64,000 nucleotides of DNA from a virus. Lineage: Duplodnaviria; Caudoviricetes. The DNA is taken from positions 1-64,000 of IMG/VR virus record IMGVR_UViG_3300013901_000005; one strand, written 5' to 3'. Below, one piece after another: positions 600 to 46,141 of the stretch (within the stretch, counting starts at the first letter, position 1; the number at the start of each line of letters is the position of its first letter). The translations under genes and the position numbers were made by a program. The notes beneath the pieces are model-generated. The model was not told where the DNA came from, made no database searches, and saw only the letters and a list, made by a program, of their open reading frames with translations.

Positions 600-3500
600 A
601 AAGACTGACAAAGCTATTAATGAACTAGTCTATGCCAAATACGATCTGCAGAAAGCGTACAATTATTATAATGGAGTGCGAGATGCGGATTAGTTTAGAT
701 ATTTGGAGGAAGTCTATGGAGCGAATGTTCCTACTACATTACATTTTACACCATTAATCAAAAAGCATATTGACGCTTTGCTTGGTGAGTATCTCGAAAC
801 ACCGATCCTTCCAAAAATACAATGCAAGGACGAAGAGACAATCACGAATATCTATAGGGATAAATAGATAGCCATAGCAAAGGAATCAAGACAGTTTCTT
901 TTATAGAAAATGAAGAATGCTACGTTAAACTAGATTACTGGAAAAGAGACTAATGATGGACTCATAGAGTAGTAGCTAAAATAGCTGATTGAAGATCTAA
1001 ATAAAAATTTTATTTCTGAATATGAAATAGCTGCATAGAATGTTATAGAATATATTATGCAGTCTAGGGATACAGATTTAATGAACGCATTACGGGATAT
1101 GCTTTTTGATTTGCTGGTCACAGGTTATGCATTTTATAGAGTAAAGCCCACTGTAGATAATAACAATATTAAAATTCAGGTACTTAATCCGCTGAATACT
1201 TTTATCGATAGGAATATTGAATCGCCGTATGTCAAAAACTCATATAGAGTTGTGGTTAGGAGTTGGATGTCAAAACAGCAGATTCTCAATATTTACGGTA
1301 AGCGGATGACTGAAGATGATAGGAAGATTCTGGATGAGAAGTGGGGTTCTATATATGAGAACGCATGGTACTACGTACATATGGGAGTTAATAAAAACGG
1401 TGTTCCCGCAACAGACGGTCTTAGAGCCGGTGAGGAAGTTACGCCAGGTTATCCAACGCAGAGTTATAACCTTCACTAGGAATTAATCCCTGTATATAAC
1501 GTAGAGTGGCTGGAAACAGATAAGGATTTCGTAATGCAAAGATATACTACGGTACGTATTGGAGAGGAAATATATATATTAACTGGAAAAGACGAGCATG
1601 TTATTAGAAGTCGTTCAAACCCTACGCAGTGTGGTCTTTCTGTAAATGGATTGTACTTTCTTAATAGGGGGACGAATCCATATTCGATGGTTTTAACATG
1701 CGCATCTTTATAGGATTAACAAAACTAGTTCTAGAAAAATCTCGTGAATTTCTGGGAAGCCGTTTAGGTAATCAGAATCCTAGTCCAATTATTGGATAGG
1801 TTCAACGACTATTATGTAGGGTCAAGTGACCCGAAGTGCGAGAATATTAAATATTTATAATATGAAATTAAATGAAAAAGAATTTAAACAAAAGGTAGCC
1901 GAATTATATAACGGTGAAATAAATATTATTGGGAAATATAAAGGATTAAGTTTTCCAATAATATGTAGTGATAAATATGGCGTATTTAAAATACAAAAAG
2001 CATTTTTATTATTAAAATATAGGCCAACAATAAAAATTGCGATGAATAAAACAGAGTATTTTATGAATATGTTAAAATAGAAATAGCCAAATATTTATAA
2101 TAGCTTAGAACCAATGTCTGAATACATTACTGCTAAACAAAAAATGTTGTTTAAAGATAGATTTGGAATAGTTGCAACAACTCCAGATAATTTAATACAT
2201 GGGCATATTCCAAATATAAAATCAGCAATAAACAGGAAAGATTATTTCAAAAATCAATTATTATTTATATATGGAGATAAATATGATTTTGAAATAACCT
2301 CAACAAATAGACATTTTGGTACTGTTACATTGATTTGTAAAAAGCATGGAAGACAATATATTGACTCGGATTCAATATTTTTAGGATCAGGTTGTCCATG
2401 TTGTAATAAAAAATGGGAAAAAAGCACAACATTTTATTTGGTTAATCTATTTTCTGAGGAAGAAAATTTTTATAAATTAGGAATTTCACATTATGACAAA
2501 AATGGTAATATAAGAAGGTTTAATGAATATAAAAATTTGGGATATAATATTAATATTATATATACACATACATTTGATGATTATATACAATGTAAAGAAT
2601 TTGAATTAAAGTTAAAAAGATTAATTAAATATAATTTATATATTCCAAAAAAATGGCCAAATGAAACATCTACCGAAGCGTTTACAAATGAATTGTTACC
2701 ATTAATTAAGCAAAATTTAATATATGATATAGTCTCAACTTCTGATGAAAGTCAGAGAAACACACGAAGTAACGAATTGTGTTAAAGAAATTGTAGTACG
2801 ATCTCCTTATATTCTACCGTGATAATTTGATTGCCAGTAGTGGTACAATAGGTGACTGGATTGACCAGACACTTATTCCCGCATAGCTTGGCGTTGATCT
2901 TCCTGAAAGGGTAAAAAACTGGATGTCCCTAAAAAAATAGGGCCTTGGTCTTTTGGATTCTTCATAGGAAGGTCGTTTGGCTTCTGGCGCTGCTCCATTG
3001 AATACAATATTCAATGGATTTGACAATACGGTAAAAGCATAGTCAATATAGGCAATATAGATTGCCATAGACTCTATAGAAGCAACTGTGTCGTCAATTA
3101 CAGGTGTATTTAGGGAGCGACTGAATGGTATCCAGCAGAAGGATGCCGTGACAAATGTTAAAATAGGAGCGTAGAATTCTTTTGTCTAGACAAAGCAGTA
3201 TTATCATTAGATGGATTTGATTGTTAATGAACTTTTACTGGATTGTTTAAACTAGGCAAAGATAGTATGGAAGAACGGACTTACTGGAAGCATTGTGCTT
3301 GGTGATAAATACCAAAAGGTATTTACCGCACTTCCAGAATATTTTACGCTTACTGACTTCGATATACGTATTATTACGAGTGCGGATATTGTTAAAGACC
3401 TGGAACAGATACGTGCGATTATTCCTGAATTTGTAAAATCTGGCGGACTTCCCCCGGATATTATCGTAGAGGCCCTTACAAGCAAGAGCATACCGGATCT

Positions 3501-9500: not shown

Positions 9501-10828
9501 TTAATACTGGAGATATGACTTAGAATGGTACTCGTATCAACGAATGGTATGATTATTATTAGGCTGGCAGAATATTGTTTAAAGAATTTGAGCAAATGAA
9601 CGTTGTTGGAAATAACGATCTTTGTGGAACAAACGTAAACGAGTTAGGTACTGGTGATGATATTGGAAAATCAAATTCTTTCTACTTCCATGTATTTTAT
9701 TGCTATGATATTGGTGACGATACTGAAGAAAATGGTAAATTTATACCAATTGTAAATAATAAATATATTCCTAGTTTATATTATTTTGATTCTGCCAATT
9801 TCAGATTTGTAATGATAAATAGCGAGATTACGCAAGTTAATTGTAGGGATTGGTTTGGGCTTAGCAAATAGTTAAGCGATGGAAATTAGGATGTATGCAA
9901 TATATATACTGGATTCTATTTAACCTCAAAAGATTATAACGATTCTTTTACTTCTGTTTATTCTATGGTATACCATATGTTAGAAATGGATAAGGAGTCA
10001 AAATCTGGAAAGCAATATATAATTGCCTGTCACGAGATGCCATTTACTGTTATTACAAACAGTAGCATTGCTGATACTCAAAAATAGTATTCTAGATCTG
10101 TAGGGCCAAATGGAGGTGCTTTGATTGGAAGTCATTGCAATCAACTTACAAAAGATGAAACTGGAAAAGGAACCTATTGGCTTAGTAGGCTTTTAGAGAA
10201 GGCTGGAGTTAAACTTTGTATTGGTGGGCATAAACACACCTATGCTTGTACATATCCTTTAAGAGAATACTTCAAATTTGGAGATAATTACCAATATAGT
10301 AGTGATAACTATTCAGATTGGAGTTCCAAATATAATATGGAGTCAACACTGCAAAATGACAATGTACAATGGGTAGTTGATTAGAAGAATTTAACGAAAT
10401 TCCCATTGACAAAACGAGAGAATGTTGGTTCTGATCCAGCTGGAAGTTTTTATCCATATACTGCAGATCCAGAACTTCAGGGCGGCGTAGTATATTTTAT
10501 GTGCCAGGCAACAGGATTTAAACTTACATCAAACAAAGAGTTACCAAGTGCTAACCAGAAATTTTCAGTAGTCGTTCCTAAGACTTCTGTATCTGGTGGA
10601 GCCGATAAAGCAAGTGCTGAACAGAAATACCCAATGTTTGGTATTATAGATTTAAATGATAATTACACTATCAAGCTAGTTCGAATAGCAAATATACTTA
10701 ACGCAAAGGCTGCATTTAATCAAAGTACATTTGGAACTTCTGATATGAAATTACAATATTTTCAGAACGTTTCCGATAATAATTATGGCCAATGGGTTGA
10801 CAACGATACTATAATGCTTACGATATGA
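6584..10828 (+). CDS. 1414-aa protein: fibre-type N-terminus, lamin-tail-like domain, purple-acid-phosphatase-like metallophosphoesterase
   Basis: ORFs 6839, 8087, 8549, 9575, 10121 and 10406 are all in one frame. Motifs FIELENTSDKDFCLKGCYL (LTD-like) and VTDQQ, NTGDMTQNG, VGNND, CHEMP, GGHKH (calcineurin-like motif set). Confidence 0.8.
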
Positions 10829-13800
10829 AACTAAATGGTAAAAACAGAATAATATCAGAAGACGATATTGAACTTTCTGGTAGTTCTTTATCAGAAAAGT
10901 TTGAATCGCAGCAATAGGAAATAGATGAACTGAAAAGTAATGTTAAATGGATATATAAATACGGAGGTGTTGGAAAGGGCGGAAGTGGTGGAGGAGGCTC
11001 CACTACAGCCTTCTCTATATATGCGACATTGGATGGAGTTCAATTAAGTGGAAATTCAATAATATTAAAAGAACCAGGAGTGTATAATTTATTTGTTAAA
11101 ATAAATAATCCTAACAATGGTCAATTTAATGTTACTTACACGTACTCTTCTACAGATAAAACTGGAAATGCCTAGAAATAGTAGAACACACAAATATTAA
11201 ATATAGAAAATAGGTATACTTTAGATGTAAATATTACTTTGAACAATAACGATACTTTAACTGTAGATGTTACAGATGGAAATGACAACAAGCAGGTCAG
11301 CTGTTCTTATGTAACAACGCCTTATCAGTTTTCCTTTACTTCAATATCTGATGGTGATAATCATAATCCGTATGGAGAAGAAATATTTATAAATACTGCA
11401 AAATAGAATGGATTAAATTTAAATTTGGATTATTCAATTTCTGTTAGCGTATAGTCTATTACATACAAATATTAGTTTAATGGAGAAACAACTGAAGGTA
11501 CTATAGAAGATAATTTCGGATCGATTAAATTTAAGGTTGATCCAGATTTCTTGGTTCCTGAAAACGCCGGATATTATAATGCTATAATTGAAATAACCGT
11601 AACGCCAACAAACCAAGATCCAGTAACTCTTAAATATAATAAATATATAAATTTAATACCAGAAGATTTGTATTTATTGGTATTACCTGAGACTGGACAT
11701 ATTTATAAATAGCCTACGGAGTCGCCAGAAGAGTATCTGCCTGGATATATTACATTTAATTATCGAGTGTATTGTGGAGCAAATCAAAATAGATCCTATA
11801 ACGTGCTTGCATATTTAAATGGAGAGCAAATTAATGAAAAGACAGTAGTTGAACGAAGTTATGAAACATTAAAATTGCCTGCAAACAACGCAGGAGAAAA
11901 CACAATAGAATTTAAAATAGGCACAAGTTATAGCGCTGTATATTATTTTTATGTATCTGAAATAGAAAATACTATAAATTGGTTTGATGAATAGTGGGTT
12001 TAGAATTATTATCGATTAGGAGATAGTACAAATACTTTTAATGGTGGAGCCGGTGTAATGGGAATTACCTAGTCGGTAAATAGCTCATCAATATCTATTA
12101 ATAATATTAATATACCAGAAGTATCTGGATAGGATGCGTTAAACACGCATATTGCTATCGGATTACAATATAATGCAATAAATAATACTGATAACCCAAT
12201 TATATAGTTATATGGCCAGACAAGTAGCACGCCCATCGTTCAAATAAAATAGTCGAAAATAACTATAAAAGGCGTAGACTATGATGTTTATATTAAAAAA
12301 CAGGATGATGCGGATATTTCAGAAGTATCAAACTTTCATTTATTGTAGATATTTTCAAAATATACAAAAAGTATTGGAAATGATTTGTATTATCAAATAT
12401 CAATTTATATAGATGGGAGACTTGAAGCCGAAGCTGGCAATTTTAGTACAAGTAGTTTAAGTGTTTCAAGAATTGAAATTTGCCCATCGAATTGTTTTAT
12501 AAATTGTTTAGATGTTGATTATATAATAAAGAATCCATCAATAAGTGAATAGTAGTTTGGAGATTATCAAGTATATAAGTATTTCTCTAAATACGAGGAA
12601 AGTATTTTACATGAATCTATTAATCCAACGTTGATAAATCTTTTGTCTGGATTTAATGTGGACAGCAATGGTAGGGTAGCTACTAATAGTACAACAATAA
12701 ATAGTATTGCAAATTTAATTGATACTCCATCTTTGTTGTTTACTTGTGAATACGATGGAGATGAAGCGGACTTTTGGACAAAACTAGAATAGAAGTATGA
12801 AGAAGACGGTGTTGGATCTGATTTCAGTTTTAATGTCAAGCTTTATTGGAGTCATGGAGGAACAGAATTAAAAGAAATTGCTGTTCCGTCTGATATGAAA
12901 GGTGCTGAATTTATAGCAAATCTTTAGGGATCTTCAACAAAGTTAAACAAATCAAAAAATTTTTTCTTGGGATTATAGAATACTAACGAGGATAGCAAGG
13001 ATTCATATTTATTTTCTCCGAACTTTAAAAATGGCGATAGCTCAACTTTCCTTCCAGAAAAAGGATTTAACCTAAAAGCTGATGTTGTTGATAGTAGCCA
13101 TTCGAATAATACTGCTTGTGGTAAATTCGTAAATACGGTTTGTAAAAAATTCAATACAAACGAAACTGGAGTATATAAAGATTATATAAGAAATTGTCTT
13201 GAAGGATTCCCGATTCTATTGTATATAGAGATAGTTACAAGCATAGATGACGTAGGTACAAAAGCTCATAATTTTTATTATTTAGGAATATATAATTTTA
13301 ATCTTGGCCGAGAATCGTATTATAATCTTGGATATAGGGATTTATCCGTATTTTACAACAGTCAAAAGTCAACTGGTAAGTTAATTGATTCTGGAGATAA
13401 CTTTACTTTCTTTTCAGTTCCTATTGATGATGATAAAAATAAAAAAGGAATTGGAGTAGCCGAAATACAAGGAGGATCTAATTATTTCGATTTTTCTCAA
13501 TATGACAAATCTATATTGTTCAAACTTGCAAATGACAATGACCAGACATATATGTTTGGAGACATAGTTTATGGAAGCGAATCTACACTAGCAGATGTAT
13601 AGGATAAAATAGCAAATCTAGTAAAATAGATTGCAAGATCCGGAGGATATATATTTAATTATTTAAAGAAAAAGTTTGGCCCCTATTCGGATGCTTATAC
13701 CGCTGCAAATGAAGATGGTAGTTCAAAAAACTAGGTGCCAGATTTTACGACGCAATATTCACGAAGTATAGAGCAATCTGGTAACGTATATACTCCAAAA

Positions 13801-16800
13801 GAAAAAATAGATATAAATTCCATAACTACAGGAGAATTGAGATAGCTAGTCGTACCTGATATTGATAACGGATCTGTAAATTCACTTGATTTTTAGAGTT
13901 TATCTGAGTATTACACTATTTGTATGACACTTGGTCTTGTTGATAGTGTAATGAAAAACATGAATATAAAAACCTGGGATATGTTAACTTGGGTTCTTGC
14001 ATTTTACGACATGGATACTTGCCTTGGTATTGATAATGCAGGTAATGATACTAGTTATTTTGCTTTTTCAGATTATTGGTATGGGAAAAAGACATCTGAA
14101 GGTAATACTGATGAACCTTAGCCAGTAAATATTTACAGGGATTTTTATTCAAAAACAGAAGGGAATAGCGAGGCTGGTTTTGATACCCCAAGTAGTTATA
14201 TTTTTGCAATAGCAAAATACGCAAAATTACTATTAAACGGAAGCACCGATATTTAGTATTTATCAGAATATCCACAACAGCTATATGCAAAATGGCGAAG
14301 TGGGACATCAAACTCAAAAACAAACGAGGGGATCCTTTGTAACGCAGATAATTTTATGGAGAAATTTTTCTCTAATAATATAGGAAAAATAGACCCATTA
14401 CTTGTAACGTTCAATTATAGATATAAGTATTTTAAATTATCTGGAATAGGGTGGGATAATTACAACTATAAAAAATTCCATGGAACTAGAATAAACAAAG
14501 TACGTGATTGGTTAAATGGTAGACTTCATATTTTGGATGATTATTTTAATTTAAACAAACAATCTGTAAACGCAATAACATATCTTGATGAAAATGATAC
14601 ATGGCAAACTCTGAAAAATGGTAATACAACAATTTCTGATATTACTTACGATAGTCAAACGTATAATTTACAAGGCAATCCTGATATATAGATTTTGCAT
14701 GATATATTTTCAAATGATACTTCGTCTTCTGGGTTGTAGACATCAAAGTCTGTATCTTTACTAATAAAATGTCCAGAAAATTCACCATTGCAGATATATA
14801 ATGCAAATAAAAGCGTATGGATGAATTATATTTTAGGCGGAAATAATTATCAAAAAATTGAGTTTTAGCCAACAGGACAACAAGCTATCCATTTTGGTGG
14901 ATCTTAGGCCTGGACTTATTTATCATCAATTGACTGGGTGTCACAGAGTGGCCCAATATCCATTACTTCAAAAAATCTTGAAAATATAACTGGGACTTCT
15001 GGTACATTCTCCGGAATCTCTCTTTCAATCCCGAGTTTAAAAGATTTGAAACTCAATTCTAATACGTATTCTGGATTGTTGTCTTTAAAAAGTAGTATTA
15101 ATTATCCAAATTTAAAATCAATTGATATTTCAGGATCTAACTTATCAATGACATTAGATGATTTATCTATTGATTATTTGAATATTTCTAATATTCAAAA
15201 CTCATAGGCAGAAATAACAATAACCAATTGTAATCAATTAAAAGATAATTTTTATTACGGATCTCTTGTATTGCAAAGTTTAACACTAAGTGGAAATAAG
15301 CAAATTGGAGACATAAATCTAGATGGTAACAAAATAAGTAAATTAGATCTTTCTTGTAGTACAGCTGGAAAGACAATATCTATAAGTAATGATATTTCTG
15401 TATCAAGTATTTCTTTAACTGGATTTGAAAACATTAAAATAAATGGATGCCCAAATTTACAATCGGTTGTAATAAAGCAGGGAAATTACTCATAGGTTAA
15501 AAATATATCCATAACAAATTGTAGTAATAAAGATTTAAAAATATAGACTGGGGAAATTCAAGTTGAAAATACGGTAGTTGACTTTTCGGAAATTACAACA
15601 ATAGAAACTGTTAATTTGAGATATTCTTCTGGAATAACTAAATTAATATTACCGAACAATGTAAAATTGACAGGAGCGGCCTGCTAGGGGTTAAATAGTT
15701 TGCAATCTATATCTGGAACCAATATACAAATAGCTGGAAGTTACATATTCTATAATTGTACTAAATATAATATGCGAGATCAAAATGGTTAGTACACCGA
15801 TTTTAACGTATAGACAAACGATATATCGTATTTGTTTTATATGAACAATACATCAAAAGTGATAACTTTAGAGGATGCAAAACATTTTATAACGTAGTGT
15901 ATTAGCGATGAGAGAAAAGCAACTATAACAAATATGTATGGTATGTTTTATGGAAATCAAGGTATTAATTATGATATAGAATAGTTTAAGAGTGATTTAA
16001 ATGGAGAATCGAAAAATTATATTGATTTTAGCAAATTTAAATCAAATGAATTGAATGTTAATTGGATGTTTGCAAATACGAATGTAAAATGTTATAATAA
16101 AAATATGCTTAATTTTAATGTGAAAACATTAAATATGTATGCATTTATTGATCCAATGCCAACTACTGATGACGGCAGTGTATATGTAACAATAGATAGT
16201 CTTGAAAATATAATAGATAAAGTTAAAATGTTATTTGGGACTTATTCAAATAATCGTAGAAAGTTTATTTTTTTAAATGAATCCGGAGATAAAGAGACTG
16301 GAGAAATTAAATTAAAAAACTTTTTTAATCCCAATGAAAAGCATCCAATAAAACTTTAGTAGCTAGATAGGTTTTATACAGACGCAGATTAGACTGTTGA
16401 TTTTACTGGTACATTTACAGAAGACTGGAAGTCTTTAACAACTTTACGAGATTTTATGTGGAAATCAAATCAGAAATATAAAGGCATAGAAAATCTTCTA
16501 TATGATTTACCTAGCTTGCAAACAATTGGCTTGATTTTTCTCAGATCTTCAATTGACCAAAGAGTGGATTTGTTTAATTTTATAAATTGGGAGAATTTTA
16601 CCCAGAAAGGATTAACCCAAAAAGGATTAATAGATTATAATCGAATTGAGCATAATGTTAACTTCGATTTTGATAAAAAAATAACATTAGAAAATTATAA
16701 TAAATTATGTAATTTATTTATAAAATCCAATATAGTTAATCTTGTTGATATTTTTAGAAATTGCAATATTGAAGGAGTAACTGATGAATTCACGTTTGGT

Positions 16801-18255
16801 ACATCAACTACAGTTAATAACACAATTGAAAATATTTGTGGCCTTTTCTATAATTGTAAATTAATAAATAATGGACGAGAATATCCAATACCTATAAGTA
16901 ATACATTTTTTAAAAATCTATCAAATATAAAAGATGTATATTCTACTTTTTCATATTGTAGTTTTTCAAATCCAATACCTTTTAATTTCTTCAATAAACG
17001 GCAAGTTTCTTCATCAATAAATAGTAAAGTATATGTTGATAATAATGGAGAAAAAGTTGATGCTACTTTAACAATATATGAATACCGCCCAGATATGATA
17101 GAATTTGGATATGTATTTTATAATTCTAGTTTTACAGCTACAAATAGGCATTTTGAATATACTGGATAGATTCCAAAAAATAACGTATATTGTGAAACGA
17201 CTGGTAGGAATGATTATACAAAATATTACACAAAACATTCAATTGTAAATGACGATAATACGGTAACATATAAATATATAGAACATACTTTGGAATAGCC
17301 ATATGAGATAACTGATTGTGAGAGCATAGAAGGGTATTATATATCTGAAATATCACCTACCACACAAGATAGTTATACGAATCCGGGTTTAGATATAAAA
17401 AAATCCTCAGAAGATTTTGATATCACAAATTGTTTATGTATCCCTCCGGATTTCTTCTATGGTATTAACAAAACACAACCAGTTAACTGTAATTGTGCAT
17501 TGTCTTGTTAGACAGGAGGCGAGTTAGTGGGAATAATACCAGAACATATCTTTTACAATAATACTAATGTTTCAGTGTCTCATACTTTTAGGAAACAAAT
17601 AATTATCCCAAGAAAGATTAAACAAATCAAAAATAATGACGAAATAGTAAACGTATATTCTAGCTTTCCATCGAATTATACAAATTACACAAATCTTGAT
17701 TATGCATTTGATATATATCCAATAATTCCTATAAATGATAAAACGGAAAATAATTTTGTATTTATCATATTAAAAGATTCTATAGGAAAAAACACTACAA
17801 GTATGAAGCATGCTTTTGATGTTTTTCGTACTGAAAATAAGTATATACATAGTTAGACAACTGGTAAATTAGATTCATATATTAATTATATGGGATATAT
17901 CCAGGGTGATACAGTAATAACAGGATTTGATATGGAATATTTTAAAAAATTATATATTGACAGTCTGTTTTATGGATGGCTTGGATTTGTTTGTTATGGA
18001 AATTTATTTAATAGTAATTTTACATTATCTGAGAATAAAATAAATAATAAGGAAAATATAGTATTTAGGCCTGCTTCTAGTATTACCAGTAGTGCTGATT
18101 CAGAAATATCTATTAACATTAAATTTCCATTAGCAGATAATAAAATAGATTATTTTTACAACGCATATACATATAACAATATGATAAAAACAAGTTAGAT
18201 AAGTAATTCTAATAGTAAAAATTGGTATTTATAGGCTGGATTTGTAATACAATAA
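10825..18255 (+). CDS. 2476-aa protein with central CotH-kinase-like domain and C-terminal leucine-rich (BspA/DUF285-like) repeats
   Basis: The + ORF fragments from 11767 to 17890 share one frame; ATGA overlap with the previous gene. Motifs LQGSST..KN, LKADVVDSSHSNN, YLGIYNFN, GLVDSVMKN, FYDMDTCLGIDNAG, then LxxLxL and xMFxxC repeats. Confidence 0.8.
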
Positions 18256-38168: not shown

Positions 38169-41100
38169 ATGTTAGTTGCTAGTTTTACATCAAGAATCCC
38201 TACAATGGGTGAAGTTGTTTGCCCATTTAAAATTCTGTGGATTGCTGGGAACCCTCCGATATACTAACATATTTTATTTGGGTAATCAGCAGCCTAGTAT
38301 TTTTAAATAAAGGTTCAACGACTACTAAGCGCAGAATAATATAATGATATAGTCTGATCTTATAAAATGGTAAATTATAAGTTAACAAAATGCAAACTAA
38401 GACATATGAGGATTGGTCAAAGTATCTCGGTGCTCGTCCGAAGCGCCTGGGTGTTGTAGCCCGTATGTACACTGATAACACTTTGAGTTATCTTACCGAT
38501 GGTTTGCGTAATATTTTCTATAAGGATGAGAAGGCAAATACCTTCCAGATTTCTGATTCACTTCTTTTTGAGTGGCAGACAGAGGTAAATAATATTAAGC
38601 ATGTTGAGTTTGCTGACCGCCCGTCTACCGATGGCGCAAATGGTTCGGAAATCACAATGGCATTTGTCGAGAACTATTATAATAAGTTTGATATCTTCCG
38701 TATTGACGGAAGCCGTCAGCAGTGTATCGTAGTTTCTCATCCTATTCGCAAGCGTGATAAATATTTCCAATAATTGTCTCGCTTTAAATAAATTCTTTAA
38801 ATTGCTGGAAAGCATTTATTGTAACCAGCAGCGTGATTGTTGTAACAATAGCGTTCAACGACTAGATGAAAATCATAAATTAATTTTAAAAACTGAATTA
38901 CAAATGAAATATATAGTATTTTTAACAACCGGTCTGAAAACAAATAGAAATCTTGTAGGAGTGCATAAGACAAATACACCTGATATTTTTGATGGATATT
39001 TAGGAGATGGAGTTGAGGCAGACAAAGCCAGTTCATTTATGTATCCGAAATCAGCATTTCAGTATGACGTTAAGATGACCGGAAGTAAGAGTTACCGTAG
39101 AATAACCATTGCAACCTGCGATACATATAAGGAAGCCTGTGCTAAGGCAAATAAGATTATCGACAATATTATAGATGATACATCATATTATAATTTTGAA
39201 AGAATTGATTCCCGTACAGTATATCAGTATGATCTTGTTGGAAAGTTAAAGAGAAAATGGAATTTTATGGAAATTGCAGATTTCTATAATTATCCGCAGG
39301 AAAGAATTAAGTGCTTTATTGATTTAAAAGTATCTTTTTCCGATTCTTTTTGGTCTTTTGATAAGTATATTGATATTAATGAATATAATGATAATTTTAT
39401 AAATCATGTTACATATATTTATAATAAGAACGGGAAACTGATAAAGGTTTACAGCAATTATGATGATGCGATAAAGTTTTTAAATTGTCCGGTAAAACAG
39501 GCGCTGGATGCGATAAAGACACAGAGAGACATAAACGGATATTATATTTCCAATAAACTATACAGCCTTTTTGAACCGAAACCAAGGAGACAGAATAAGT
39601 CACAGATATTCCACGTTTATAAGGATACCGGGGAATATCTCGGAGCGTATAAAGGAAAGACCGTAATGAAGGTTATCAATCAACATTCATGGAAAAAGAT
39701 CTCGAATACTTTCAACCTATATGGTGGGTGGTATAAGGACTTTTATCTTTCACTGGTTACTGTGGATAAAATCCCAGAAAGGCCATGGAAAAAGAAGGTA
39801 GAGGTTTACGACAAGGATGGAAAGCTAATTGAGACTGTTTATAATCTAAATATACTTGGATCAAAATATAAAGTTCCTAAAAACAAAATTGTCGATATTC
39901 AGCAGGGAAATAAATATTATGGTGATTATATATTTAAATACTATAGTAAATGATATAGTCTAAATGAATTATTGGGAGCTCCAGGTACGTCTCATAGATA
40001 ATACCTATGATACTACCTTGGATCTCAATTATTGTAATCCGGGTGATACTACCACTTTCCAATCGGTAGCACAACCTGAATTAAGCGAGGAAGGCGAAGT
40101 AGTTGAAAATGAGTTACTTTCCTCCGTTAATATTAATATTTAACGAAAAATTAAATAAATATTCTTAATTGCTGGAAGGCTGAATTATGCTAATCAGCAG
40201 CGATTCTCTAAATAATAAACAAAGAGAACGTTCAACGACTAATCCAAATGGATGTAGGGGAGGTAACCCCGAAATGGAATAAATCTAAAATTTGAATACT
40301 GCGTCAAGGCAGGATATAAAAACGCAAAACAAGTCACCTTGGGCAAACGAAACGTTTGTAAAGGTTTTGTATTTAAATATTTAGATTAAGATATAGTCTG
40401 AACAATATGGAAACATATTGATTAACACAAATTGTACTCAAAGTTCCAGTCCAATATGGAACTTCATCGCAACTATATGACAACCTTCCGTTGTGACGCA
40501 AGCTGGTCTAGCCTCTACGCACTTCAGGAAGATGTATTTATGCGTATTGCTGACGATACGGATAAATCAAAGGGCGAAGGTGTTTACAAGATGTTGAAGA
40601 AGGAGAAGGAACTCCTCGATACATTTATGTACGCCATGAATACAGGGTTGAGAATAACAGCTCTGTCTAAATTCTTCTAATTGCTGGGAAAACCATTTAA
40701 TGGTTTATCAGCAGCTAAGATATTTAAATTAGTGGGAAACAATTTTTATATAATGTTCAACGACTATCCGAGTAAGGGTAGGTATTTAAAATACCAAAAT
40801 GGAGAATAATTTAAAATATATTGTATATCAAACAATAAATATAGTAAATAATAAAATATATATTGGAATCCACGGAACAAAAGATCCAATGAGATTTGAT
40901 GGATATATAGGAAATGGCGTTAATATAAATTATCCATCAACTTATATGAATCCAAAATTTCCATTTCAATTTGCAGTAAAAAAATATGGAACTTCAAATT
41001 TCAAAAGAAGTGTATTGTATATATATAATACAGAAATTGAAGCTCTTTTAAAAGAAGAGGAAATTGTAAATGAAGATTTTATAAAAAGGAACGACACATA

Positions 41101-44100
41101 TAATATTGCGATTGGCGGCAAAAAACGGCCATACGTTCCTATATACAATAAAATATATCAATTTAATGAAAACGGCAAATTATTAAAAGTATGGAATAAT
41201 ATTTATGAGATTTCTGATTTTTTTGAAACGTGGAAGCAATCAATTTATAGTGCAATTAATAATAAACAAAGATTGTATGGTTTTTATTGGAGTTATCAAA
41301 AAGAAATATGCATAAAAGATTTTTCAAATTCAAATAAAAACAGAAAGGTTTACCAATATTCAAAAGATGGAAAATGTATTGCAATTTATAATAGTATTGG
41401 AGAAGCTAGTAAGATTCTGAATATTTCTTCATCAAATATTATAAATAATGTAAACAATGGGTCTTTAACAAAAAACGATTATTATTTGTCATACAAATTA
41501 TATGATCAATATGTTTGTAGACCAAGAATGGATTTAAAAAATAAAATATTGTATTTGTATGATTTAGACGGAAATTTCATAAATAATACAACATCAAAAG
41601 ATTTCAAAAAAAAATACAATATTCATTCATATAAAGAATTAGAAAATGCAATATTAAACAATAAACCAATTCAAAAAAACCAAATAAAATTAGAAAAGTT
41701 TAATAAAATAGAAAAATATATTCCAATTAATAAAAAGAAAAAAGTTGAGATTTATAAAACAAATAGAGATTTTGTCGCAGAATTTGACAGTGTATCAAAT
41801 GCATGTAGACAATTAAAATTAGACCGCTCAACAATTTCAAAAATATTAAGAGGATGTGCCAAACGAACAAAAGGATATACAATTAAATATAAAAATTAAA
41901 GATATAGTCTACTCTTTATAGTAATATAAAGTATTTAAGTGTTATTAAATAAAGGAAATGTGGATTAATTAATAGTTCACAAAAAATTTCTCTAATTGCT
42001 GGAAAACCTTTAGTGAGACAACCAGCAGCTAAAAATGAAAATCATTTTGGGTTCAACGACTAATTGAAAAATAATAATAAATAAAAAGGGAAATAAATTA
42101 TGGAATATATAGTTTACAAAACAATAAATAAAATTAATAATAAATTTTATATAGGAGTTCACAAAACTGAAAATTCTAAAATATTTGATGGATATATAGG
42201 ATGTGGAATATATATTAATAAAGCAAAATATATCAAATCGCCAAATACATATTTTTTAAAAGCAATTAAAAAGTATGGTACTGATAATTTTTATAGAGTA
42301 GTTTTAAAATCTTTTAATAATTATAATGATGCTCTAGATCTGGAAAGATGGCTAGTTACTGAAAAGTTTATTAAAGATAATAATAATTATAATTCTGCTA
42401 TTGGTGGAGGGTTGTCTCCAAAAAATAATAAAGAAATATATCAATATGACTTAAATGGTAAATTAATTAAAAAGTGGAACTCTATGGTTGATATTAATAA
42501 TGCATTTAAAACCCATATTCAAATGAGTTATATTATTAATAATAGAAGAAGTTTTGCCGGATTTCTTTGGTCATTTAATAAGAATATAAATATTGATGAG
42601 TATATTTTGCATAATAATAGAGGGTTTATATCTCAATATGATTCTAAATTTAATTTTATCAGAAAATTTAAATCTTCTAAAGAAGCATCTAAAATTTTAA
42701 ACATACCCTTAGGATCAATAATTTCTAGTGTTTTTAGAAGAAAAAAAATAGACGGTTTTTATTTTTTAAAAGCTGATTTTGATATTGACGAACTTTTTAA
42801 AGATGAAATAAATTATGTTTATCGACAAACAAAAATATTTCAATATAATGATGATGGGGACTTTATAAATGTATATAAATCGATTTTAAATTGTTCAAAA
42901 GAATTAAATTTATCCTATAATAAAATAAAAGAAATTATTAATAAAAAGGAAAAGTTTAATAATTATTATTTATCATATAGATATGATACATCATATTTTA
43001 ATATAAAATTTCCAAATAAAAAAGTAATAATAAAAGTTTTGCAATATGATAAAAATAATCGGTTTATTAAAGAATGGGATGATATTAAACAATTATTAAA
43101 AGAATACCCAGAAGCACTAAAAGTTTGTAGAAACAAATTAAAGACACATAAAAATTATATATTCAAATATAAAATAATTTAAAGATATAGTCTGATCTTT
43201 GCAGTAATGTAAAGTTAACATAAATGGTTAATGGCAAGGCAACAATCGTAGAGCCTGATACTCAGAGACCTATAAAAATATATGTAGGGGTAATCAGTGA
43301 TGATTATTATAAAATCTTTTGAATTGCTGGAAATCCAAATGGATAATCAGCAGCTATATTGATATATCAGTAAAGTTCAGAGACTATCCGGTTATGGAAT
43401 ACATAAAATATGGAAGCAAAAGATAACTCATAAAAATTAAATAAAGTAATTTATGAAATATATAGTATATTGTACAATAAATTTAATTAATAATAAAATT
43501 TATATTGGAGTTCACAAAATTGATCCCAAACAAGTTAATGATTATTATTTAGGTTGTGGATGTTTTAGCAATAGTCCAAAATCGTATAATAAAAGAAATA
43601 CTGCTTTTTGCTGTGCAGTCTCAAAATATGGGCCATCAAATTTTAAAAGGGAGACAATTAAAGAATTTGACACATTAGAAGAGGCGCTTGAACTAGAAAA
43701 AGAAATTGTTAATAAAACATTCCTAAAAAGAAAAGATATTTATAACCAAATAGAAGGTGGTGGTTATCCACCAACTTTAGAAAAAAAAGTGTATCAATAT
43801 AATTTAAATGGATACTTTATGATGGAATGGAAATCTATAAAATCTATTACTAATTATTTTAATATAAATAAAGATAGAATAAATATGGTTATAAAATCAA
43901 AACGATCTTTTAATGCTTGTTATTGGTCATATAAATACGTAATACGCTTAGATACCTCTAATTATCGACCGAGTTCAAGAGGCAGTATAAGAGTCTTTTC
44001 TAAAGATAAAAAATTATTATATAATTTTGAGAATACAACAAAAGCAGCAGAATTTTTAAATATTAGACGAGAAAAAATAACAAATGCTATATATGGTAAA

Positions 44101-46141
44101 TATGCAACAAATAATTATTATTTTTTAAAAGAAGACGAAGATATTGAAACATATTTAAGTAAAAATAATAAAAATCAACATATATTTCAATATGATGAAA
44201 ATGGAAGTTTATTAAACGAATATAACAATGTTGCAGAAATAAGAAAAAATATAAATATAATAAAAATGATTTAAAAAGAGCAGTTAAAAATAATAGTTTA
44301 TTAAATGGTTTTTATTGGTCTTATTTTAAATGTAATAACATATTAAATAATGAGTTAATGATATAGTCCGACACTACTAGTAATAGTAGATAACAGAGAA
44401 TGATATATAGGCGAGGGAGCAATCCCTCAGATTGAGGCCGCAGCCAACAAATACGTTTATAATGACAAGCCCAGTCTGCCGTTGTTCAATATGATTATGG
44501 CAGATATGTCAGACAAGTGTCAGAGCGATACAGGCAATCACTACGCTTTTGTGGTGAATCGAATTCTTTGGAATGATATTAACCTCGTTCTTGGTGAGTT
44601 CCTTTCACACTATCGCACTGATGGTTCATTTATGTACTCAAAGTCAGCTAACCAGGGCAAGGGTGGTTACGTAAAAGTAGGTGCCACATATGATACATAT
44701 GAGTTCGCTAGTTAATGCCGGCGAATAAAAATTTATTAAATTGCTGGAAAATTATATAAAAATATAAACTATAACATAATTGGAAACAGTATGTGTGAAT
44801 GTTTAAAAATTATATTTTATAATAACCAGCAGCAAACTTCCTAAACAATAAAATTGCATGGAAGCTGTTCAACGACTATTTTAACAAAATAAGAAATATC
44901 TAAAAGAATAAACGTTATGAATTTAAAATATATATTATACATTACAATTAATACTATTAATGGAAAGTTTTATATTGGTGTACATAAAACAAATCCAGAA
45001 GTTTTTGATGGATATATTGGAAATGGAATATATCGTCAATCAGAAGCTGTGAAAAATACACCATTCCATAAAGCAGTAAAGAAATATGGGTATGATAATT
45101 TTAAAAGAACTATTATAAAAATTTTTCCATTTGATGAACAAGGATATACTGATGCATATAAATTAGAATCAATTTTAGTTAATGAAACTTTATTAAAAAA
45201 CAAAAATTGTTATAATTGTTCACTAGGCGGATTTGGTAGTATAAATAATGATAATTTAAAAAAAATTTATAAATTTGATTTAAATGGAAATTATTTAAGA
45301 AGTTTTAAGTCTGTTAGAGAAGCTGCTTTATCTATTAATCCAGAAAACATTTATAATACAATCAAATCAATAAGAAATAATTGTTTAGGTATATCAAAAA
45401 GTAGTTTTGGATATTATTGGAGCTATATAAAGCAATTTAATTATTCAAATAACAATAGCAAAAAAATATCTCAATATACTTTATCTGGAAAATTTATTAA
45501 AAACTATAATAGTATTGAAGAAGCACAATTTGATTTACATTTAAATTCAATTGCATAGGCGATTTCAAAGCATTATAATTGTGGAGGTTTTCAATGGAGA
45601 TTTTATAATGGATCTACAAAAGATATCACTCCTTTAATAAACGAACGAAATAAGAATAAAATATTACCAATATTAATGATAGATATAAAAACTGGAAATA
45701 CAAAAAAATATAGTAGTATTCAAGAATGTGTAATAAAAAATCCTCAATTAAGAAAAACTCAAATAAACAGAGTTATAAAAAAAATAATTAAGTCACATAA
45801 AGGATTTTATTTTAAATATGATAACGATAATATAGTCTAAATTGGGCAACTCTATAACCTTTATGGTTGATAGAGCACTCACTCGCGAATATCCTACAAA
45901 GGGATATGGTGTATGTATCGACTTGACCGCTGACAAGACAACTGGTATGCCAGCTATTGGCAAATTTAGTCTTACCGGAAAAGACTTTATGACAAATAAG
46001 GTCATTGGTGTAGGCGGTTATGACGGAAAAACCTCTGGTGAGGTAGCCAGCAATGTGGCTGGCAGTAAGCTGATAATGAGTGGGTATGCAGGTATTGCAT
46101 GCTTTGCTCCGTATCGTTCAGTTATTTTGCGTCAGGCTTAA
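38169..46141 (+). CDS. Major capsid protein, 475 aa, spliced from 8 exons: 38169-38210, 38393-38758, 39967-40095, 40435-40648, 41940-41965, 43227-43273, 44403-44709, 45845-46141
   Basis: Exons total 1428 nt and give one open frame: MLVASFTSRIPTMG|QTKTYEDW..RKRD|NYWELQ..ELSEEG|YSKFQSN..NTGL|LLNKGNVD|VNGKATI..RPI|YIGEGAIPQ..YEFA|GNSITF..ILRQA. Resembles crAss-like MCP and follows the scaffold gene. Confidence 0.88.
38211..38392 (+). mobile_element. MCP group I intron 1 (182 nt, no ORF)
   Basis: P1 AATGGGT/GCCCATT; core ATTGCTGGGA, AATCAGCAG, GTTCAACGACTA, GATATAGTCT; terminal G. Confidence 0.9.
38759..39966 (+). mobile_element. MCP group I intron 2
   Basis: P1 AGCGTGAT/GTCTCGCT; P10 CCAATAATT/AATTATTGG; full core motifs. 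Confidence 0.9.
38904..39953 (+). CDS. Intron 2 GIY-YIG/NUMOD-family protein with degenerate active-site motifs (349 aa)
   Basis: MKYIVFLTTGLKTNRNLVGVHKT..FDGYLGDG; VYQYDLVGKL-type NUMOD1 repeats. Confidence 0.75.
   Translation: MKYIVFLTTGLKTNRNLVGVHKTNTPDIFDGYLGDGVEADKASSFMYPKSAFQYDVKMTGSKSYRRITIATCDTYKEACAKANKIIDNIIDDTSYYNFERIDSRTVYQYDLVGKLKRKWNFMEIADFYNYPQERIKCFIDLKVSFSDSFWSFDKYIDINEYNDNFINHVTYIYNKNGKLIKVYSNYDDAIKFLNCPVKQALDAIKTQRDINGYYISNKLYSLFEPKPRRQNKSQIFHVYKDTGEYLGAYKGKTVMKVINQHSWKKISNTFNLYGGWYKDFYLSLVTVDKIPERPWKKKVEVYDKDGKLIETVYNLNILGSKYKVPKNKIVDIQQGNKYYGDYIFKYYSK
40096..40434 (+). mobile_element. MCP group I intron 3 (339 nt, endonuclease remnant)
   Basis: Core motifs present; P1 GAGGAAGGC/ACTTTCCTC; residual ..LGKRNVCKGFVFKYLD* before GATATAGTCT. 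Confidence 0.85.
40649..41939 (+). mobile_element. MCP group I intron 4
   Basis: P1 ACAGGGT/GCTCTGT; P10 AATAACA/TGTTATT; core motifs. Confidence 0.9.
40799..41899 (+). CDS. Intron 4 GIY-YIG homing endonuclease with NUMOD1 repeats
   Basis: YIVYQTINIVNNKIYIGIH..FDGYIGNG..KEEEIV..YN; VYQYSKDGK repeats. Confidence 0.85.
   Translation: MENNLKYIVYQTINIVNNKIYIGIHGTKDPMRFDGYIGNGVNINYPSTYMNPKFPFQFAVKKYGTSNFKRSVLYIYNTEIEALLKEEEIVNEDFIKRNDTYNIAIGGKKRPYVPIYNKIYQFNENGKLLKVWNNIYEISDFFETWKQSIYSAINNKQRLYGFYWSYQKEICIKDFSNSNKNRKVYQYSKDGKCIAIYNSIGEASKILNISSSNIINNVNNGSLTKNDYYLSYKLYDQYVCRPRMDLKNKILYLYDLDGNFINNTTSKDFKKKYNIHSYKELENAILNNKPIQKNQIKLEKFNKIEKYIPINKKKKVEIYKTNRDFVAEFDSVSNACRQLKLDRSTISKILRGCAKRTKGYTIKYKN
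41966..43226 (+). mobile_element. MCP group I intron 5
   Basis: P1 TGTGGAT/GTTCACA; core motifs; terminal G. Confidence 0.9.
42100..43182 (+). CDS. Intron 5 GIY-YIG homing endonuclease with NUMOD1 repeats
   Basis: YIVYKTINKINNKFYIGVH..DGYIGCG..LERWLV..YN. Confidence 0.85.
   Translation: MEYIVYKTINKINNKFYIGVHKTENSKIFDGYIGCGIYINKAKYIKSPNTYFLKAIKKYGTDNFYRVVLKSFNNYNDALDLERWLVTEKFIKDNNNYNSAIGGGLSPKNNKEIYQYDLNGKLIKKWNSMVDINNAFKTHIQMSYIINNRRSFAGFLWSFNKNINIDEYILHNNRGFISQYDSKFNFIRKFKSSKEASKILNIPLGSIISSVFRRKKIDGFYFLKADFDIDELFKDEINYVYRQTKIFQYNDDGDFINVYKSILNCSKELNLSYNKIKEIINKKEKFNNYYLSYRYDTSYFNIKFPNKKVIIKVLQYDKNNRFIKEWDDIKQLLKEYPEALKVCRNKLKTHKNYIFKYKII
43274..44402 (+). mobile_element. MCP group I intron 6
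   Basis: P1 CCTAT/GTAGG; P10 ATATAT; core AATTGCTGGAA, AATCAGCAG, GTTCAGAGACTA, GATATAGTCC. Confidence 0.9.
43453..44274 (+). CDS. Intron 6 GIY-YIG homing endonuclease; last NUMOD repeat frameshifted near 44244-44249
   Basis: YIVYCTINLINNKIYIGVH..; the -1 frame continues KYKYNKNDLKRAVKNNSLLNGFYWSY. Confidence 0.8.
   Translation: MKYIVYCTINLINNKIYIGVHKIDPKQVNDYYLGCGCFSNSPKSYNKRNTAFCCAVSKYGPSNFKRETIKEFDTLEEALELEKEIVNKTFLKRKDIYNQIEGGGYPPTLEKKVYQYNLNGYFMMEWKSIKSITNYFNINKDRINMVIKSKRSFNACYWSYKYVIRLDTSNYRPSSRGSIRVFSKDKKLLYNFENTTKAAEFLNIRREKITNAIYGKYATNNYYFLKEDEDIETYLSKNNKNQHIFQYDENGSLLNEYNNVAEIRKNINIIKMI
44710..45844 (+). mobile_element. MCP group I intron 7
   Basis: P1 TTCGCT/GGCGAA; P10 TGCC/GGCA; core motifs; terminal G. 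Confidence 0.9.
44917..45840 (+). CDS. Intron 7 GIY-YIG homing endonuclease (307 aa, one TAG)
   Basis: ORF 44917..45558 reads through TAG into AISKHYNCGGFQWRF..SHKGFYFKY to TAA 45840. Confidence 0.85.

Follow-up and report, generated by a model that had tools for sequence, protein, structure and literature searches.

The first 64,000 nt of the virus record IMGVR_UViG_3300013901_000005 (hereafter the window; the complete IMG/VR record has 155,233 bp and is rated 100% complete by CheckV) contain, at 38169 to 46141 on the plus strand, a gene for a major capsid protein (MCP) that very probably consists of eight exons separated by seven group I introns. The list of open reading frames (ORFs) between 38.1 and 46.2 kb shows four short capsid-like fragments between five ORFs that open with a YIVY...YIG-type motif. 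As a tblastn query against the 64-kb window, we used the 473-aa ORF of MT835470.1 (P0001), an intronless homolog from the phage collection. The search resulted in eight colinear pieces, two of them very short, and each junction was then read from the sequence.

All exons and introns lie on the plus strand. Exon 1 (38169..38210; 42 nt, codons 1–14) starts with ATG, matches residues 1–15 of P0001 and ends in a T that pairs with G38221; in intronless relatives it is joined to the remaining gene without a break. Exon 2 (38393..38758; 366 nt, codons 15–136) has 57% identity to P0001 residues 16–141, and its protein is 96–97% identical to the homologs at two related IMG/VR loci, L008 and L009. Exon 3 (39967..40095; 129 nt, codons 137–179; 62% identity to residues 138–182) has C and not T as its last base, and its junction EEG/Y is gap-free against 14 homologs. 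Exon 4 (40435..40648; 214 nt), which runs from codon 180 to the first base of codon 251, matches residues 181–253 and is 96% identical to L008 and L009 at the nucleotide level. The next two exons are micro-exons. Exon 5 (41940..41965; 26 nt) finishes codon 251 and runs through codon 259; it was placed by spliced alignment with a profile built from relatives only. Exon 6 (43227..43273; 47 nt, codon 260 to the second base of codon 275) was found with tblastn (residues 263–284) as well as by spliced alignment. Exon 7 (44403..44709; 307 nt) begins with the third base of codon 275, ends with codon 377 and matches residues 266–372, and exon 8 (45845..46141; 297 nt including the stop TAA, codons 378–475) has 54% identity to residues 375–472. 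In L008 and L009, exons 5 and 6 are contiguous, as are exons 7 and 8.

Together, the exons sum to 1428 nt within a span of 7973 nt (17.9% coding, 82% intron). They contain no stops or frameshifts, and the spliced product has 475 aa and a single terminal TAA. It aligns end to end with the 473-aa members of the family PF23898 (57–61% identity) and, colinearly and without gaps, with the intronless 475-aa capsid proteins of eight related phages (76–78% identity). In an alignment of the product with 14 homologs (15 sequences), none of the seven junctions coincides with a gap. As an independent check, we applied a spliced-alignment dynamic programme whose profile was made from the eight intronless relatives only. 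The same eight exons were returned: with a bonus for a terminal G, only the junction of intron 1 is off, by 1 nt, and without this bonus three junctions are off by 1–3 nt, at positions where the sequence is ambiguous. Furthermore, introns 5 and 7 are absent from the near-identical L008 and L009, so that both joins can be seen directly as empty sites. The eight-exon map with micro-exons of 26, 42 and 47 nt, which an earlier note had drawn from the sequence of the window, was thus rebuilt independently with identical figures, and the comparison to intronless MCPs that this note had proposed as a check gave the gap-free alignment described above.

The product was assigned to the MCPs with three kinds of evidence. 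P0001 matches PF23898 (Crassvirus major capsid protein, Crass_capsid; cut-off 27 bits) with 52.2 bits, and also PHROG 11589, a major head protein. For the spliced product itself, the family match is by proxy: intronless proteins of equal length that are 77–78% identical to it score 44.5–47.7 bits. A second homolog (P0022) is named 'major capsid protein' by its source. Lastly, a Foldseek search with the AlphaFold model of the relative L014 placed capsid chains of phicrAss001 in the top seven ranks (E values 4e-12 to 8e-10, template modelling (TM) ~0.3), followed by other HK97-type phage capsids; this model has low confidence, with a predicted local distance difference test (pLDDT) value of 52.9. 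When the PDB was searched by sequence, neither a single protein nor a profile of 20 sequences gave more than noise. Since the PF23898 scores, the source name of P0022 and the Foldseek matches agree, we identify the gene as encoding the MCP. No second copy of a capsid gene was found in the genome.

The intervening segments were compared to the Rfam group I intron model RF00028, for which the gathering score is 50 bits, and inspected for the helices that the internal guide sequence forms with the upstream (P1) and downstream (P10) exon. Two introns contain no ORF. Intron 1 (38211..38392; 182 nt) scores 62.6 bits, with a P1 of 7 bp including the U.G pair, a P10 of 5 bp and a terminal G, and intron 3 (40096..40434; 339 nt) scores 68.3 bits, with a P1 of 8 bp and a P10 of 5 bp. 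The others are longer and contain an ORF. In intron 2 (38759..39966; 1208 nt, ORF 38904–39953), the 5' half of the model matches with 34.6 bits (E value 5.6e-6); its P1 has 9 bp with one mismatch and its P10 has 12 bp. Intron 4 (40649..41939; 1291 nt, ORF 40799–41899) matches with a 5' piece of 36.9 bits and a 3' piece of 25.3 bits (P1 7 bp with U.G, P10 7 bp), intron 5 (41966..43226; 1261 nt, ORF 42100–43182) with pieces of 32.4 and 23.2 bits (P1 7 bp with U.G, P10 6 bp) and intron 6 (43274..44402; 1129 nt, ORF 43453–44274) with pieces of 45.9 and 20.4 bits (P1 5 bp with U.G, P10 6 bp). Intron 7 (44710..45844; 1135 nt, ORF 44917–45840) has a P1 of 7 bp with U.G and a P10 of 4 bp, and its match (E value 0.016) was obtained in a local scan only. 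Introns 2, 4, 5 and 6 thus have sub-threshold matches to the 5' core (32–46 bits), and 4, 5 and 6 have separate 3' pieces (20–25 bits); the matches are split because the ORF interrupts the match to the model.

A second signal comes from the core motifs of group I introns, for which we searched J3/4-P4, P6'-J6/7-P7 and J8/7-P7'. All seven introns contain (A/G)ATTGCTGG, then GTTCANNGACTA, then (G/A)ATATAGTC, in this order. Of the motif GTTCANNGACTA, the window has eight copies where 0.16 would be expected (50-fold), and seven of the eight are distributed one per intron. The distance from J3/4-P4 to P6'-J6/7-P7 is 53–76 nt in six introns and 128 nt in intron 7, where we read the long insertion as an extended P5.

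The splice sites are consistent with these cores. Every intron ends in G, and in six of the seven the 5' exon ends in T, that is, a U that is paired with a G of the guide sequence. P1 comprises 5–9 bp and P10 4–12 bp across the seven introns. As counted by our shuffle script, P1 and P10 together amount to 11–18 bp per intron, which was matched by 0–63 of 5000 shuffled intron heads. Exon 5 serves two introns: its nucleotides 1–7 take part in P10 of intron 4 and nucleotides 20–26 in P1 of intron 5, leaving 12 nt between the two pairings. The earlier claim that this 26-nt exon supplies both helices was therefore borne out without overlap. The claim that P1, P10 and a terminal G mark the junctions likewise holds for all seven, whereas the U opposite G expected at the 5' splice site fails at intron 3, where exon 3 ends in C opposite A40116.

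We conclude that this split gene is very likely the sole MCP gene of a complete 155-kb crAss-like gut phage and that it is cut by seven group I introns. After transcription, each intron would fold into a ribozyme core whose internal guide sequence would bind the 3' end of the preceding exon in P1 and the 5' end of the following one in P10; each intron would then be excised by two transesterifications, and the mature message of 1428 nt would encode an HK97-type capsid protein of 475 aa. We infer that all seven introns are spliced efficiently in vivo.

Several observations weigh against this conclusion. Only introns 1 and 3 pass the gathering score of RF00028, intron 7 reaches only 17.8 bits, and the nearly universal U.G pair is absent from the 5' splice site of intron 3. 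All seven junctions rest on sequence comparison. The structure model behind the fold comparison is the low-confidence model of L014 mentioned above, and single exons have no capsid match in Pfam or PHROGs, as such short pieces do not suffice to detect a weak family. Two of the intron ORFs look damaged. In the endonuclease of intron 2 the GIY-YIG motif is degenerate (YIVF...LVG, with YIG changed to LVG), and the ORF of intron 6 (273 aa) is frameshifted, with its C-terminal NUMOD-like part in another frame past an A-run at about 44241–44247. From these ORF defects it follows that not all endonucleases need be active. The frame change at the A-run 44241–44247 could be an inactivating mutation, a sequencing error or slippage.

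The missing U.G pair can be followed in the relatives. In the window, C40095 faces A40116. The guide sequence of intron 3 is UGAGU-U-A-CUUUCCUC (paired by hand; the script scores the same arrangement), where CUUUCCUC forms a P1 of 8 bp with GAGGAAGG of the exon and UGAGU forms a P10 of 5 bp with ACUCA of exon 4. At the homologous position, all six orthologs of the intron (in L012, L015, L017, L022, L024 and L025) have GGT followed by the G of the guide sequence, that is, U.G; thus, the window carries a coordinated change of U to C and G to A. Compared to L015, two further base pairs of this P1 differ by compensatory double changes, which supports the helix. The versions in L015, L017 and L024 contain an ORF and measure 996 nt; intron 3 shares 81–84% identity with them. 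Other donors for intron 3 (U40100, U40103 and U40104) were rejected, as they break the frame or add three residues where all homologs are gap-free; in addition, the orthologous introns put the junction after the Gly codon. A search for more genomes with the C.A variant returned only three known contigs with U.G. In engineered group I systems, c-A is second to u-G in reactivity, but less efficient (PMC11417360). A coordinated change from U.G to C.A at a 5' splice site would thus be an unusual natural case of what we otherwise found described only for engineered ribozymes.

GIY-YIG/NUMOD-type ORFs are present in five of the seven introns (2, 4, 5, 6 and 7). By the coordinates of the Rfam model they are in the P8 position; in the split matches of introns 2, 4, 5 and 6, the ORF lies between positions 158 and 219 of RF00028. 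NUMOD1 was detected in all five (30.9–57.8 bits, Pfam cut-off 22.8), and the ORFs of introns 4–7 match the PHROG homing-endonuclease families phrog_314 and phrog_19446 with E values of 1e-18 to 1e-25; the ORF of intron 2 has no match to these families. The motif YIVY...(K/F)YIG is readable in introns 4–7, and the cut-off of PF01541 (GIY-YIG) is reached by the ORF of intron 6 alone (22.6 bits, equal to the cut-off). Individually, the ORF of intron 2 encodes 349 aa (NUMOD1 30.9 bits) and is intact and 78% identical in L008 and L009. That of intron 4 encodes 366 aa (phrog_314, E value 1.2e-18; NUMOD1 57.8 bits) and that of intron 5 encodes 360 aa (phrog_314, E value 2e-19), for which no close relatives were found in IMG/VR. 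The ORF of intron 7 (phrog_314, E value 2.6e-25) amounts to 307 aa only if a single TAG at 45556–45558 is read through. A tRNA with anticodon CUA, an amber suppressor, is encoded on the minus strand at 151589–151662 of the genome, outside the window. The capsid exons of the window contain no TAG, and the intron endonucleases of the relatives carry up to five. In five relatives (L010, L013, L016, L021 and L023), the capsid gene itself has in-frame TAG codons, mostly at Gln positions, for instance at codon 15. Close to its start, each endonuclease ORF has another ATATAGT motif, which was considered as a duplicated segment of the ribozyme; it actually consists of codons of the YIVY motif.

The five endonucleases in the window are 26–44% identical to each other, whereas orthologs at the same site are 48–90% identical. 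For this reason, sequence comparison identifies them as old, site-specific lineages and not as recent duplicates. The endonucleases are presumably active, and during co-infection they would cut intronless alleles, into which the intron and the flanking exon would be copied. Introns 1 and 3, the two short ones, are ORF-less forms.

To place the introns in their clade, we collected 18 IMG/VR loci with relatives of exon 2 and mapped the intron sites of 17 by spliced alignment. L019 was left out of the site catalogue (poor alignment, probably frameshifts), and L025 is too distant for the no-indel model. Eight loci (L010, L013, L014, L016, L018, L020, L021 and L023) have an uninterrupted 475-codon gene. 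One intron each was found in L011 (codon position 377) and in L015 and L017 (codon position 179), and three in L022 (15, 179 and 432.7) and in L024 (27, 179 and 321.7). Seven introns are present in L008 (14, 136, 176, 250.3, 274.7, 452.7 and 457.3) and in L009 (14, 136, 176, 250.3, 269, 452.7 and 457.3), both with a 14-nt exon. Finally, L012 (IMGVR_UViG_3300017569_000030) has nine introns at 9717–17782, with exons of 33, 32, 24 and 33 nt. The clade thus has at least 15 distinct insertion sites, six of which fall within codons 250–280, and most introns show the core motifs in order. The 14-nt micro-exon, located between codons 452.7 and 457.3 (L008 13381–13394, L009 15609–15622), is shorter than any exon of the window; its placement comes from spliced alignment only, and two of the three core motifs are missing from the intron at 452.7. 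One intron of L012 and one of L024 contain a LAGLIDADG-like ORF instead of a GIY-YIG ORF. Outside this catalogue, the capsid gene of L002 (MT835492.1, 3001–4380) has the usual span of 1.4 kb but is read as three ORFs owing to stops or frameshifts and not to introns; these may be recoded stops or assembly errors in a record marked 'unverified'.

With the exception of intron 5, each of the seven introns has an ortholog in the corresponding position of another locus, and often only one of the two contains an ORF. Intron 1 has orthologs in L008, L009 and L012 and is 88.7% identical to the versions in L008 and L009. Intron 4 is 90.5% identical to the L009 intron at its site. The ribozyme part of intron 6 is 83% identical to an ORF-less 235-nt intron at the same site in L008, and intron 7 has orthologs in L011 and L012. 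No ortholog of intron 5 was found at its site (259) in the 17 mapped loci; there it is seen only in this genome. All seven sites adjoin invariant or nearly invariant residues of the family, as expected of endonuclease targets. Seven mobile group I introns have very probably colonised the capsid gene, each at a conserved codon position. That sites are filled, empty, ORF-plus or ORF-minus among the relatives indicates, as far as genome comparison can tell, ongoing gain and loss.

The exons next to the introns are also affected. The coding sequence of the window is 85–100% identical to L008 and L009, except for positions 421–537, where identity falls to 61–70%, no better than to distant lineages. 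This divergent tract of 117 nt begins 12 nt into exon 3 and stops exactly at intron 3. In place of intron 3, L008 and L009 have an unrelated intron at site 176, 9 nt upstream. The replaced tract looks like exon co-conversion that accompanied an intron replacement in one direction or the other. Together with the filled and empty sites, it lends indirect support to a putative site-specific cleavage of intronless alleles by the endonucleases. The earlier note had suggested that neighbouring introns may block or co-convert one another. This idea gains some support from the tract that ends at intron 3, the only evidence in its favour, whereas introns located only 14–33 nt apart coexist in relatives, which counts against strict exclusion. 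An extended version of this picture, in which the capsid gene is an arena of at least 15 competing intron/endonuclease lineages whose near neighbours displace each other by exon co-conversion, and in which the C.A site makes intron 3 a slow, possibly pH-sensitive step that limits the appearance of the capsid, is one we consider speculative and unlikely.

What the introns do for the phage can be explained differently. They could act as a regulatory gate, as the earlier note had suggested: the timing or the amount of capsid protein would be set by exon skipping or by splicing that is ordered or slow, with the C.A pair of intron 3 as a candidate for such a step. The lower efficiency of c-A in engineered systems could make intron 3 the slow step, and the micro-exons bring the pairings of neighbouring guide sequences to within 12 nt of each other. 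However, eight relatives make the capsid protein with no intron and others have one to nine at varying sites; intron content is thus not conserved as a device. Furthermore, skipping exon 4, 5, 6 or 7 singly (214, 26, 47 or 307 nt) shifts the frame, so that the skipped products would be waste. Ordered splicing, timing control and useful skipped isoforms are therefore unsupported, and we regard a regulatory gate as unlikely. In the favoured reading, the introns are selfish passengers and not a regulatory device.

It is less likely still that the gene is dead or dying in a defective genome, with one or more introns (such as 3 or 7) that no longer splice. The lack of U.G at intron 3, the faint Rfam signal of intron 7 and the two damaged endonuclease genes would fit such a decay. 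Yet this is the only capsid gene of a genome rated complete, its exons are free of stops and frameshifts and all core motifs are intact. In addition, the step from U.G to C.A altered both bases in concert and preserved the wobble geometry, and two other phages carry an ortholog of intron 7 in the identical position. Lastly, a chimera of strain variants that inflates the intron count could be imagined for a contig from a metagenome assembly in which the ancestry of exon 3 differs from that of its neighbours, but the independent contigs L008 and L009 have the same architecture with seven introns each (five and four of the seven sites in common), all junctions preserve the frame with single-base precision, and the end of the mosaic tract coincides exactly with an intron site, which is what homing would produce. 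Such an artefact is therefore very improbable. We thus retain the reading of a functional MCP gene interrupted by seven mobile group I introns.

The capsid gene is not the only gene that looks split. In the portal gene (window 1057–2800), a portal fragment at 1057–1479 (phrog_6547) precedes a P7 motif of the group I type (1800), a J8/7 motif (2726) and an ORF for an HNH-type endonuclease (2114–2785; phrog_681, E value 1e-24). Further pairs of P7 and J8/7 motifs occur on the minus strand at about 109.2–109.3 kb and at 119.4–119.5 kb, outside the window. Counting these, the introns of this kind in the genome number ten or more, and the capsid gene accounts for seven.

Mobile introns of this type are familiar from other systems. 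In phage T4, the group I intron of td carries the GIY-YIG endonuclease I-TevI with a modular DNA-binding tail, and its homing co-converts the flanking exon; there is one intron per gene, and the ORF occupies another ribozyme loop. By comparison, the ORFs of the capsid introns are in the P8 position and their endonucleases are distant from characterised ones, with Pfam GIY-YIG matches at or below the threshold. Fungal mitochondrial cox1, a conserved gene as well, can be interrupted by twelve or more site-specific group I introns that bring homing endonucleases with them; its exons can be very short, and strains differ in which introns are present. Unlike the gene described here, it is organellar, its endonucleases are mostly LAGLIDADG, its splicing is protein-assisted and no virus is involved.

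Among phages, Twort orf142 of Staphylococcus is comparable in that several self-splicing group I introns interrupt one late structural gene. As cited in PMC11878797, Landthaler and Shub (1999) described three group I introns and exon skipping there; on this account, orf142 differs from our locus by having three introns instead of seven and by splicing that was demonstrated experimentally, whereas it is inferred here. In the Jug jumbo gut phages of Bacteroides or Phocaeicola, genomes have a mean of 18.5 group I introns that split essential genes, and about half of the tested introns were confirmed as spliced by metatranscriptome reads (PMC12880540). Unlike the introns of the capsid gene, those of the Jug phages are mostly ORF-less, about 206 nt long and cut terL, nrdD and polymerase genes into two to three pieces; seven introns per gene are not reported there (PMC12880540).

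Close counterparts are crAss-like phages of the Delta and Zeta groups, in which group I introns, up to 14 per genome, interrupt core genes, among them the MCP gene (Yutin et al. 2021, PMC7886860). The earlier note was thus right to describe capsid genes with many introns as established for some crAss-like groups. The Zeta-group cMAG OLRF01000054 (PMC7886860) resembles our genome as a crAss-like phage of a 145–192 kb group whose MCP gene has several endonuclease-bearing group I introns, and both lineages share suppressor tRNAs and a high intron load. With its length of 155,233 bp inside this range, its many introns and its amber suppressor tRNA, our genome may belong to the Zeta group, although these features are circumstantial evidence only. 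Compared by description only, its MCP gene is in five fragments with four intervening segments, which were recognised via protein domains without junctions at base level, whereas the locus described here is resolved to single bases into eight exons and seven introns, with micro-exons of 26–47 nt and a C.A site. The kind of gene is thus already known, and the present one is extreme but not unique, as two close relatives have seven introns and another has nine.

New here are the larger number of introns per gene, the junctions at base level, the micro-exons, the C.A site and the comparative catalogue of sites. The result is a base-level map of one of the most intron-dense viral protein genes that we found described. 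In such phages, gene callers would miss the capsid gene, as single exons match no capsid family. Moreover, the same 1425-nt gene occurs with 0, 1, 3, 7 or 9 introns at at least 15 sites, which turns one oddity into a system. Judging from intact reading frames and cores, group I introns that are only 14–26 nt apart would still splice. The clade thus offers a natural data set on homing endonucleases and phage mosaicism, and on the minimal spacing (14–26 nt) of two group I introns.

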